Shown: piece by piece, positions 43,817-56,592 of the stretch
How positions within the stretch are numbered: position 1 is the stretch's first letter
How the letters are laid out: each line of letters begins with the position of its first letter
Source: a phage
Strand: one strand, 5' to 3'
Length of the DNA stretch: 64,000 nt
Assembly: GCA_009015555.1 (NCBI GenBank)
Contig: GCA_009015555.1_3613.1
Translations under genes and position numbers: made by a program
The notes under the pieces: generated by a model
The model's input: only the letters and a program-made list of their open reading frames with translations
The model's database searches: none
Told to the model about the DNA's origin: nothing

Positions 43817-44109
43817 GATGCCTCCGGAAACGAATAAAAGGTTCTCACAACCACAATCTCAAGGTTAATACCCGGATTGTCTCTTGTCAAGGCTTCTTTT
43901 TTCCTTTCTGCATTTTTCAGTTTGGAGAAAACTTGGAACTTCTTGTTGATGACCGGAAGGGTGTCAGACCCAACCATCTTTATCGCAAAGTACACATCTC
44001 CGCCACGCAACCCTTGGCCCAGCTTATGCTGGAACCAGGCGTTGAACTCATCAGGCGTGGTGTCAATACCTGCGAATCTTTTCAGCCACAGCCTCAGCTT
44101 ATTCATCAT
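43813..44109 (-). CDS. hypothetical basic protein
   Basis: Start at internal ATG. Confidence 0.45.
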   Translation of the reverse strand: MMNKLRLWLKRFAGIDTTPDEFNAWFQHKLGQGLRGGDVYFAIKMVGSDTLPVINKKFQVFSKLKNAERKKEALTRDNPGINLEIVVVRTFYSFPEAS

Positions 44110-44626
44110 AGTCCCCTTTCGCATAACGTGGGCCACGAAGTTCAAGGCCCGTCTTATCCAGTGAATGTGGGGATATCATGCCATTACTGTTCCAGAACTT
44201 CAAGTCTTTTTTCACCTGCTCCGCCTTTCGGTCCACGAAAGCCGCAACGATGTCGGGGTTTGTCTTCGGCATTGCCCGGTACACAGCACTGCGGGCATTT
44301 TCAAACTGGTCCTCGATAATCTTCAACTGATCCATCATTTCCAGTTCGTCCATTGCCTCTTTACACACGCAGCAATGACCTTTGGAGAAATACTCCCGGC
44401 TATCCTTGAAGTGGTCCCAACGCTCACCTTGGATAGGGAGGGCCATACGCCCACAGTAAGCACAGACGTGGGTAGATTTGTCAGACAGGACGGTGGTAGG
44501 GCGGATGCCTTCCTTTGTACTGTTCCAGCCGTAATGGTGACCTTCCCTGCCATACATATAAGAGAAGAATTTATAGGCGCGTTCATCGACGTGCTCTTCG
44601 TCACGATTTTTGGTACGTTCGAACAT
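44099..44626 (-). CDS. Cys-rich hypothetical protein (first gene of the leftward block)
   Basis: AAGAGGAA RBS; promoter upstream; CAYCG ... HCCVCK. Confidence 0.55.
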   Translation of the reverse strand: MFERTKNRDEEHVDERAYKFFSYMYGREGHHYGWNSTKEGIRPTTVLSDKSTHVCAYCGRMALPIQGERWDHFKDSREYFSKGHCCVCKEAMDELEMMDQLKIIEDQFENARSAVYRAMPKTNPDIVAAFVDRKAEQVKKDLKFWNSNGMISPHSLDKTGLELRGPRYAKGDYDE

Positions 44627-44658
44627 ATTTTCGTTCCTCTTTTGTGTTTGATGGTGGG

Positions 44659-44687
44659 ACTATACCGAGTCTCGATCGGGAAATCAA
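44659..44687 (-). promoter_or_regulatory. sigma70-type promoter heading the leftward block
   Basis: Minus strand TTGATT-17-TATAGT; spacer contains CGATCGAGAC, the motif repeated at 55.5-55.7 kb. Confidence 0.6.
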
Positions 44688-44750
44688 CCCTTGCATCGTG
44701 TTTTTGTTCATGGTACTTTATTGTTCACTCAACATGAACAGGAGATTACT

Positions 44751-45314
44751 ATGAACAAAGTATTATCCCCGGCAGAGCAGCTTGCCATGATGATTAAGTT
44801 GGCTGCAACACACCACATGCAACAGTTTGATAAGGGCGGGCGTCCTTATGTTCTGCACGTCCTGAAGGTAATGCACTACCTTAAGGTAAAGGATGACGAC
44901 GAACTGAACTGTATTGCCGTGGGCCACGACATCGTTGAAGATACCCCGGTACAACCCTGCGATTTGGAACGGCTGGGTATGTCCAACAGGGTTATCTCTG
45001 GGATCGCTCGGCTGACCAAGGTAGAAGGTCAGACCCACGGCGAATACCTCAAAGGTGTCCTGGAGAGTTATGATGCCTGCCGTGTTAAGCTGGCAGACCT
45101 GCGTCACAACACCGATATCCGCCGTCTGAAAGGACTGCGTAAAAAGGACTTGCAGCGAATCCAGAAATATCATAAAATGCACATGCAGATTAAAGACATG
45201 ATCGCATGGTACGAAAACAACCATTTGAGCATGTTCTCTTTCCCGGGCGATTATTTTTCTGCCCGTGATGAGCAGGTGAAATCAATCATGGAGAAAGAAT
45301 ACGATGCGGATTAA
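44751..45314 (+). CDS. HD-domain phosphohydrolase, (p)ppGpp-hydrolase (SpoT/RelA HD)-like
   Basis: AGGAG RBS. H..H ... GHDIVEDT, resembling the HD motif of alarmone hydrolases. Confidence 0.65.
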   Translation: MNKVLSPAEQLAMMIKLAATHHMQQFDKGGRPYVLHVLKVMHYLKVKDDDELNCIAVGHDIVEDTPVQPCDLERLGMSNRVISGIARLTKVEGQTHGEYLKGVLESYDACRVKLADLRHNTDIRRLKGLRKKDLQRIQKYHKMHMQIKDMIAWYENNHLSMFSFPGDYFSARDEQVKSIMEKEYDAD

Positions 45315-55440: not shown

Positions 55441-55564
55441 CAATGTACCAGCACACCCGGCCCCGGTCAAGGGCTAATGTACCATAAATGTTACATTAAG
55501 GGGCTTATGCACCACTAACGGCACATATACGTTACAATACGGGAGTTATCTCTGGTCAAAAAAT

Positions 55565-55735
55565 TTGAGGGTCTCGATCGGTTTTTCGTTTTGCCGATCG
55601 TATTCTCTGCCCGCCGGGCCGGACTGGGGTCTCGGTACAGAAAGCAGGGTCTCGATCGAAAACTCAATTTCGAGATCGTATTCTCGATACAGGTACAGGT
55701 CTCCGCCCGGGGTCTCGATCGAGATTTCATTTTCA
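55565..55735. repeat. three ~45-bp direct repeats GGGTCTCGATCG-N-CGTATTCTC
   Basis: GGGTCTCGATCG at 55569, 55647 and 55710, each followed 14-18 nt later by CGTATTCTC; GCCCGCCGGGCCGG blocks in between. Confidence 0.75.
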
Positions 55736-55769
55736 AAAACGTATTCTCAAAATCTATACAGAGGTGAAA

Positions 55770-55895
55770 ATCGAAATGAGAATTTTTATCATTCACGTTA
55801 GGCCCGAGGCGAAATGAGAATCGTTCTCATTTGCAAATTGAAATGATAATTATTCGCATTTACGTAGTTGAATGAGAATCATTCTCATCTCCAGA
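55770..55895. repeat. four palindromic repeats GAAATGAGAAT-n-ATTCTCATTT
   Basis: Four copies, two of them perfect palindromes (AAATGAGAA-TCG-TTCTCATTT; ATGAGAAT-C-ATTCTCAT). Confidence 0.75.
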
Positions 55896-56164
55896 ATAGC
55901 GGGCACCCCCGGTGATTGTCTCCGGGTCATTTCTCCCCGCTATGTGTATAATATAGCCCAACCCCGGCCCGGTTGCAAGCGTCTTTACAGTTCTTTACAA
56001 AACTATTTTGGACGAACTACCGGCGATCCACCTTCCGACCTGGCCCCGGTGCCCGGTACGTTAGCCCCGCCTTTTCGCCGTGGGGTGGCGTCTCCTCTCC
56101 TGTATGTGTACATTATGGACTAGCCCCGCCGGGCCGTCAATACCAAAACGAAAATAAATTTTTC

Positions 56165-56563: not shown

Positions 56564-56592
56564 TTGACGGGGCCAGCGATAGGCCCCATAAT
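56564..56592 (+). promoter_or_regulatory. sigma70 promoter with GGGGCC...GGCCCC spacer hairpin
   Basis: TTGACG-gGGGCCagcgataGGCCC-CATAAT. Confidence 0.75.

Follow-up and report, generated by a model that had tools for sequence, protein, structure and literature searches.

Four TGTTCA copies over a predicted promoter of a Certrevirus phage: a putative operator-like quasi-palindrome

Between two divergent genes of the phage genome described here, direct and inverted copies of a short motif, TGTTCA, are found immediately upstream of a gene for a small alarmone hydrolase. A sequence-only reading had proposed that these repeats are an operator or a leader stem-loop by which this gene is controlled. 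The question raised by the locus is whether the copies act at the level of DNA, at the level of RNA, or not at all.

The divergent junction and its genes

The window, that is, the whole stretch of 64,000 nt that was analysed, belongs to a phage of the genus Certrevirus (Vequintavirinae) near the Cronobacter phages CR8 and CR3. The region from 43800 to 45700 matches 25 Certrevirus (Vequintavirinae) records, showing 88-94% identity to CR3, PBES02, and CR8, and the intergenic stretch is 98.5% identical to that of CR8. Blastn searches detected the region in the same 25 records only, with no hit in E. coli, and scans of IMG/VR and JGI metagenomes yielded just one further variant. A gap of 124 bp separates the leftward ORF at 44099-44626 from the rightward ORF at 44751-45314. 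To the left of the gap, genes are oriented leftward over about 36 kb, genes to the right are oriented rightward, and the minimum of the cumulative GC skew falls at about 44 kb, exactly at the strand switch. The same split into four blocks by gene orientation has been described for phage CB7, and GC skew is known to track gene orientation and transcription direction in these phages (PMC7344957). Comparisons among relatives revealed homology breakpoints at both edges of the intergenic region, at about 44618-22, 44691, and 44758.

The first gene of the leftward block (44099-44626, minus strand) specifies a product of 175 aa with a CxxC ... CCxC cysteine pattern. Judged from this pattern the product is possibly a zinc ribbon; its PHROG matches are solely to families of unknown function. 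The first gene of the rightward block (44751-45314, plus strand) is predicted to encode a small alarmone hydrolase of 187 aa, since the product contains an HD domain of the RelA/SpoT type and no synthetase domain. It matches the N-terminal region of TIGR00691 (model positions 3-135, E 2.3e-10), and the closest solved relative is Aph1 (PDB 7smg, E 1.3e-16), a (p)ppApp hydrolase (PMC10083569). The protein falls into phrog_990, metal-dependent phosphohydrolase, and matches Pfam HD_4 below threshold. The designation "(p)ppGpp-hydrolase-like", which had been given from the letters of the sequence, is therefore correct as to an RSH-type HD hydrolase but approximate as to the substrate, because the closest solved relative hydrolyses (p)ppApp. 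Small alarmone hydrolases have been implicated in counter-defence, directed at toxic alarmone synthetases, and in regulating the stringent response.

Relatives differ in the gene following the shared leader, which indicates that the operon has a mosaic first gene, the breakpoint being located at about 44758. After the shared leader, MNKVLSP begins the 187-aa hydrolase and MNKLTFG a protein of 413 aa, and the module of promoter and leader including ATGAACAA precedes a third gene start, MNTELRP, as well. In phiTE-type phages (PcCB7V, L002 3452-4693; CB7, phiTE, DU_PP_I) it is the 413-aa protein that is driven by the same promoter and leader, and its HD domain is C-terminal (residues 241-366). 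Seunavirus and Mydovirus harbor a separate gene of about 340 aa ahead of the HD gene, annotated as thymidylate kinase in KB57 and as hypothetical in SSE121 and EspYZU15.

Predicted promoters of the intergenic region

For promoter prediction, the intergenic plus strands of 17 phages were scored with an approximate sigma70 matrix, and the scores are rough. The set comprised Certrevirus phages, two Seunavirus phages, Mydovirus KB57, UPEC06 and SSBI34, which are Vequintavirinae with records lacking a genus, and FBKp34 of the Stephanstirmvirinae. In the window, the top-scoring site on the intergenic plus strand is a predicted sigma70-type promoter at 44691-44719, consisting of a -35 element TTGCAT (44691-96), a spacer of 17 bp, TG at 44711-12, and a -10 element TACTTT (44714-19). 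This arrangement is that of an extended -10 sigma70 promoter (TTGnnn, 16-18 bp spacer, TGn, TAnnnT), and promoters of the form TTG-17-TGnTAnnnT are used by host RNA polymerase. The site is shared by all 17 phages and hence by several genera, with the -10 element ending 29-34 nt before the ATG. It is the best site in 15 of them and the second best in POP15 and phiTE, where TCGACA-17-TATTTT further upstream scores 10.6 versus 10.2 and 9.4 for the shared site. For FBKp34, promoters are annotated at the equivalent positions on both strands.

An alignment of 15 distinct versions of the region was also prepared, the columns of which were then classified by assigned role. TTG, TG, T-12, A-11, and T-7 are invariant in this alignment, and the other positions of the -10 element differ (TACTTT, TACCTT, TATCGT, TATCTT, TAAATT), as would be expected if this element is functional. 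The transcription start is predicted at about 44726/7, inside a CAC that is invariant in the 15 relatives. From this position the leader should comprise about 24 nt.

A leftward promoter, TTGATT-17-TATAGT, was found by the promoter scan at 44659-44687 on the minus strand. The two -35 elements are arranged back to back, 3 bp apart, and the pair AATCAAyyCTTGmAT is conserved across Certrevirus. A looser version, TCAAnnCTTGA, is present in four out of six more distant relatives examined, the exceptions being FBKp34 with GTCAACCCTTGACA and SSBI34, in which the -35 elements are further apart. The spacer of the leftward promoter also contains a conserved palindrome, TCTCGATCGGGA (TCTCGATCGAGA in CR3), at 44670-44681, which makes the divergent region rich in elements with symmetry.

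Repeat search and alignment identified a further unit of 40 nt, (G)GGTCTCGATCG-N18-CGTrTT, at 44667-44706 on the plus strand. It covers both -35 elements, ends where the first TGTTCA copy begins, and has its core palindrome, TCTCGATCG(A/G)GA, in the spacer of the leftward promoter. This is the fourth copy of the unit in the window; the other three are located in the non-coding region 55568-55748. In CR3, the core GTCTCGATCG occurs at four sites matching the 40-nt copies, to which a search with one mismatch adds one at about 109.97 kb. The stretch 55520-56000 as a whole is non-coding over about 0.5 kb; its counterpart in CR3, between CR3_127 and CR3_128, measures about 1 kb. It may serve as an origin or in control. 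It contains the three 40-nt direct repeats, GGGTCTCGATCG-N18-CGTATTCTC, at 55568, 55646, and 55709, and four palindromes AATGAGAATCnTTCTCATT at 55775, 55813, 55842, and 55871. These palindromes resemble iron (Fur) boxes, but none is within three mismatches of the 19-mer consensus, and Fur boxes at 55.8 kb were dismissed. At the second divergent junction of CR3 (138053-138418), an AT-rich gap of 365 bp contains repeated (T)AAGATC motifs along with AT palindromes, and this junction resembles an origin more than the present locus does.

Sigma70-like early promoters have been described for Certrevirus (PMC7344957). Compared with the published consensus, AAAA-N3-TGTTGAC-N19-TATAAT, the rightward promoter has weaker hexamers, a TG extension, and the TGTTCA copies. 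For phage rV5, a bidirectional promoter was expected at the divergence of genes 81 and 82 and none was reported there (PMC3606486); this junction may be the counterpart of the present locus. Elsewhere in the window, between 56500 and 63600 on the plus strand, many small early ORFs are preceded by members of a series of near-consensus sigma70 promoters (TTGACr ... yATAAT). The spacers of these promoters contain an inverted repeat rich in GC, GGGGCC...GGCCCC, which runs into the -10 element, examples being those at 56564, 57102, 57813, 58144, 58907, 60449, 60966, and 62992.

Arrangement and conservation of the TGTTCA copies

The three repeats placed by the sequence-only reading, TGTTCATG at 44705-44712, TTGTTCAC at 44721-44728, and CATGAACA at 44733-44740, were all verified, as was their location just 5' of the ribosome binding site. 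The Shine-Dalgarno sequence AGGAG (44740-44744, plus strand) is situated 6 nt 5' of the ATG at 44751. A fourth copy had been overlooked, ATGAACA at 44751-57, which overlaps the start codon. The description of the stretch as a leader applies in part, but most of it is predicted core promoter. Copy 1 (TTTTTGTTCATG, 44705-44710, plus strand) occupies positions of about -22 to -17 in the rightward promoter, within its spacer, and the ATG at its 3' end leads into the TG of the extended -10 element. Copy 2 (ATTGTTCAC, 44722-44727, plus strand) spans about -5 to +1, its final CA being the predicted transcription start. Copy 3 (44735-44740, minus strand; CATGAACAGG on the plus strand) is found at about +9 to +14 and directly abuts the Shine-Dalgarno sequence on its 5' side, and copy 4 (44752-44757, minus strand; ATGAACAAA on the plus strand), at about +26 to +31, belongs to the start codon and codons 2-3. 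For parts of each copy a simpler explanation is thus available. With the start at about 44726/7, copies 1 and 2 would be outside the mRNA, and since the promoter is placed alike in 17 phages and annotated accordingly in FBKp34, the copies as a set appear to straddle core promoter and start.

The four copies are mirror-symmetric about 44731, with a spacing of 17-13-17 bp and the orientation ++--. They are part of an imperfect palindrome at 44703-44759, with arms of 25 nt (44703-27 and 44735-59) that are 80% complementary and separated by a 7-nt centre. The palindrome includes the -10 element, the Shine-Dalgarno sequence, and the ATG in addition to all four copies, and it is at its edge, about 44758, that nucleotide homology to the phiTE-type phages stops. 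The hexamer TGTTCA as such is not enriched in the window (54 matches versus 43.8 expected). When both strands were searched for any hexamer present in at least four non-overlapping copies within 60 bp, only two places in the 64 kb emerged, one of them being this locus, and dinucleotide shuffles produced a mean of 0.1 such clusters per window.

A small ORF is also formed by the sequence around copy 3. It extends from 44734 to 44754 (ATG AAC AGG AGA TTA CTA TGA, MNRRLL*, six codons), has its start codon some 8 nt away from the 5' end predicted for the transcript, and terminates in a stop codon overlapping the hydrolase start (ATGA). It is open in every relative with copy 3 and missing in CR9, and may be a mere by-product of the ATGAACA repeat.

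Conservation of the copies was assessed in the alignment of the 15 versions. Copy 1 shows a single change, G to C in the CR9 lineage (TCTTCA). Copy 2 occurs as TGTCCA in phiTE and as CGTTCA in AGFS01061535, neither of them compensated in copy 3, and is replaced in the CR9 lineage. Copy 3 is intact in 13 of the 15 relatives and likewise replaced in the CR9 lineage. Copy 4 is invariant, even in combination with a different downstream gene, and the Shine-Dalgarno sequence is invariant as well. Free variation was observed in the 7-nt centre (44729-33) and in the spacer between Shine-Dalgarno sequence and ATG (44746-50). The TGTTCA positions without any other role (19 columns) have a mean of 1.05 non-consensus sequences per column and the remaining unassigned positions (35 columns) a mean of 3.77, that is, the former are about 3.6 times less variable than their neighbours; because the sequences are related, these averages are descriptive and stand apart from any formal test. 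The CR9 lineage, represented by CR9 and an IMG/VR contig, retains the promoter, the Shine-Dalgarno sequence, and the gene with copies 2 and 3 replaced. The element therefore appears dispensable for basal expression. In Seunavirus, Mydovirus, SSBI34, and FBKp34, the promoter position is kept, and the repeats and a significant hairpin are absent.

Operator-like element and rival explanations

It is possible, and tentatively preferred here, that the four TGTTCA(Y) copies represent a putative operator-like quasi-palindrome which would act at the DNA level over a sigma70-type promoter. The reading is favoured because of the position on the core promoter, the symmetry at the level of DNA, the conservation of half-sites around a variable centre, and the joint loss of copies. 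A DNA-binding protein encoded by the phage or the host would occupy the inner inverted repeat TGTTCA-N7-TGAACA, which is centred at about +5 and whose half-sites are largely conserved, and possibly the two outer half-sites too. Binding would block RNA polymerase at the rightward promoter, for example to shut off the operon once the early phase is over or when the host is in a particular state. The operator option of the sequence-only reading gains from copies distributed from about -22 to +31 around the predicted start. Also in its favour are the rarity of such clusters in shuffled windows, the retention of the promoter-leader module ahead of three gene starts, the similarity of copies 3 and 4 to the tor box, and the conserved palindrome in the leftward promoter. 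Other observations speak against it. The window and the 149-kb CR3 genome each contain the exact inner repeat a single time; matches with one mismatch do occur elsewhere in CR3. Since the palindrome is unique in CR3, there is no regulon that would back a dedicated regulator. No DNA-binding family was recognized among the ten neighbouring ORFs; with the exception of the hydrolase and of one match to a membrane-protein family, their PHROG matches were solely to families without known function. Neither of the outer copies is accompanied by an inverted partner close by, and an offset of 17 bp places neighbouring sites on different helical faces.

The control at the RNA level that had also been envisaged would require that the arms of the repeat are transcribed together. 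For the main transcript this is not supported, since the 5' arm of the proposed stem-loop, 44721-27, is located at or upstream of the predicted start. Copies 3 and 4, the only ones in RNA from the predicted promoter, share one orientation and are unable to form a helix together, and the mRNA from the predicted start (44727-44790) lacks significant structure (-11.5 kcal/mol, z -1.07). The stem-loop itself (44718-44745) is weak (-4.5 kcal/mol, z -1.1, a stability equalled by 26 of 200 shuffles), and its stem is disrupted, uncompensated, in phiTE and AGFS01061535. A more elaborate version, which we consider improbable, is a translational gate of the type known from e, soc, and I-TevI of phage T4, in which Shine-Dalgarno sequence and AUG are paired with an upstream arm that holds the promoter, so that RNA begun inside the hairpin escapes repression and long RNAs from upstream promoters on the same strand are subject to it. 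Applied to the present locus, RNAs begun upstream of 44703 would fold a 57-nt hairpin burying Shine-Dalgarno sequence and AUG, and RNAs from the promoter inside the 5' arm would lack that arm and be translated; in a weaker form, the inner stem-loop alone would act in a longer leader started upstream. The full palindrome indeed folds well as plus-strand RNA (44697-44765, -22.4 kcal/mol, z -5.0, none of 200 shuffles as stable), pairing the Shine-Dalgarno region and the AUG. In fold z-score this start ranks 6th among 113 predicted gene starts in the window, which is unusual and not unique. The -10 element is inside the 5' arm as in the T4 cases, and in some relatives the second sigma70-like site TCGACA-17-TATTTT (TCGAnA) would start transcription at about 44712, with copies 2-4 in the leader. 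In the window, however, the corresponding -10 candidate is TGTTTT and lacks the key A. The minus strand folds nearly as well (-18.4 kcal/mol, z -4.45), which identifies the symmetry as a property of the DNA; the plus-strand hairpin is more stable by about 4 kcal/mol through G-U pairs, one of which, 44712-44750, is converted into G-C in CR3. The Shine-Dalgarno sequence itself is paired merely by weak U-G and A-U pairs. A long plus-strand transcript has no obvious source, because the genes over about 36 kb upstream are on the opposite strand, unlike those of the T4 cases, and because no good plus-strand promoter was found within 3 kb upstream (42-44.7 kb scanned). Nor does the alignment of the 15 versions contain compensatory changes supporting the helix, again in distinction from T4, and the middle of the long hairpin, -10 element against Shine-Dalgarno sequence, shifts without compensation. 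Hairpin z-scores of -3 to -5.5 are confined to one Certrevirus subgroup, consisting of CR3, CR8, PBES02, KaOmega, and SS-2025; they are not significant in phiTE-type phages or other genera, UPEC06 having a marginal hairpin (z -2.3) of different sequence. A scan of 44300-45100 against Rfam gave no family match, the lone hit being a chance snoRNA (E 4.3), and an intrinsic terminator was rejected since the terminator scan was empty here and no T run follows either arm.

The copies may also have no separate function, each being kept for a local reason such as a T-rich spacer into the TG of the extended -10 element, a CA start, the 5' context of the Shine-Dalgarno sequence, or a favourable ATG-AAC-AAA start, their likeness then being the relic of an old local duplication, either inverted or a tandem one of 17 bp. 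This is the main rival, held somewhat less probable than the operator: 5 of the 24 TGTTCA positions coincide with promoter, Shine-Dalgarno, or ATG positions, the arms resemble a 17-bp tandem repeat in that CATGAACAGGAGATTAC and TATGAACAAAGTATTAT agree at 11 of 17 bases, and TGTTCA is missing from the homologous T-rich spacer of Escherichia phage UPEC06, TTTTATTTTCAT. In CR3, ATGAACAA is a frequent gene start, and many matches to TTGTTCAT are present on the minus strand. The uniqueness of the site and the fact that CR9 manages without copies 2 and 3 also fit. On the other hand, chance is a very unlikely source of four copies in exact mirror symmetry, and a duplication, if neutral, ought to have decayed in lineages which differ by 15-20% here, whereas the 19 positions without other role are the less variable ones. 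In CR9, copies 2 and 3 are gone together and copy 1 is altered, which looks like the loss of one unit. Quite improbable is a structural or replicative role of the DNA, as a cruciform or unwinding site or as a component of an origin or of a boundary for recombination, where the two largest opposed gene blocks diverge. The skew minimum, the breakpoints at the intergenic edges, and the 40-nt unit shared with the origin-like region at 55.6 kb can be cited for it. Yet GC skew is non-specific as evidence for an origin, because it follows transcription direction (PMC7344957), the 40-nt unit fails to explain the TGTTCA copies because it ends where they begin, arms of such limited complementarity around a 7-nt centre are poor for cruciform extrusion, and the other divergent region of CR3, AT-rich and GATC-rich, is the more origin-like of the two.

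Among known systems, the half-site is similar to the tor boxes of TorR in the divergent torR-torCAD region of E. coli and Salmonella. The tor box is CTGTTCATAT in boxes 1, 2, and 4 and CCGTTCATCC in box 3 (PMC9239176). The copies match this decamer in 6-9 of 10 positions, copy 3 in 9 (reverse complement CTGTTCATGT, the sole copy reaching this value), copy 4 in 8, and copy 1 in 7. A TGTTCAT core is common to both, and in each case four copies are present in a divergent region of about 125 bp. The four boxes of E. coli torR-torC, however, are direct, spaced by 10/21/22 bp, located upstream of the torC core promoter, and activating, while two direct and two inverted phage copies, spaced by 17/13 bp, are situated on and downstream of the core promoter. 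As orientation, spacing, and position all differ, membership in the tor box class was rejected. Because of the resemblance of the half-site, a host regulator of the OmpR/PhoB type (winged-helix) is regarded as a lead, not a conclusion. Motifs for GlpR, DeoR, PhoB, and ArcA, and likewise for CusR, DnaA boxes, IHF, and CsrA, were considered informally and dropped since half-site or spacing did not seem to fit. It would be surprising if the quasi-palindrome were a switch tying expression of the alarmone hydrolase to a signal. In one version, a host regulator of the OmpR/PhoB type, e.g. TorR, would bind the tor-box-like half-sites, and early expression of the phage would then be coupled to the respiratory state of the host. 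In the other, the element would be an operator on DNA and a hairpin in read-through RNA, leaving the hydrolase untranslated except from its own promoter.

Palindromic operators overlapping promoters are well known, such as those of P22 Arc/Mnt at the divergent promoters Pant/Pmnt and the LexA boxes. Like these, the phage element has inverted half-sites over spacer, start, and early transcribed region of a divergent sigma70 promoter, with conserved half-sites and a variable centre. It differs in consisting of four half-sites, spaced 17-13-17, instead of one compact operator of 17-21 bp, in being a single site in the genome, and in that no cognate protein was found. By analogy, the element would work most like a promoter-overlapping operator. 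From these analyses, the earlier observation is confirmed and extended; its operator reading is plausible, and a leader stem-loop is unsupported for the main transcript.

To our knowledge, transcriptional control in phages of the Vequintavirinae is almost unmapped. The analysis places a conserved pair of predicted back-to-back promoters at the divergent junction, the rightward one of which, ahead of the small alarmone hydrolase, carries a conserved symmetric element over its core. The locus exemplifies a familiar type of element in a lineage-specific form, with a putative function. If nothing binds there, the promoter is an ordinary one that carries a repeat of historical origin; binding of a protein to the element, if it occurs, would provide a handle on when the phage turns this operon on or off.
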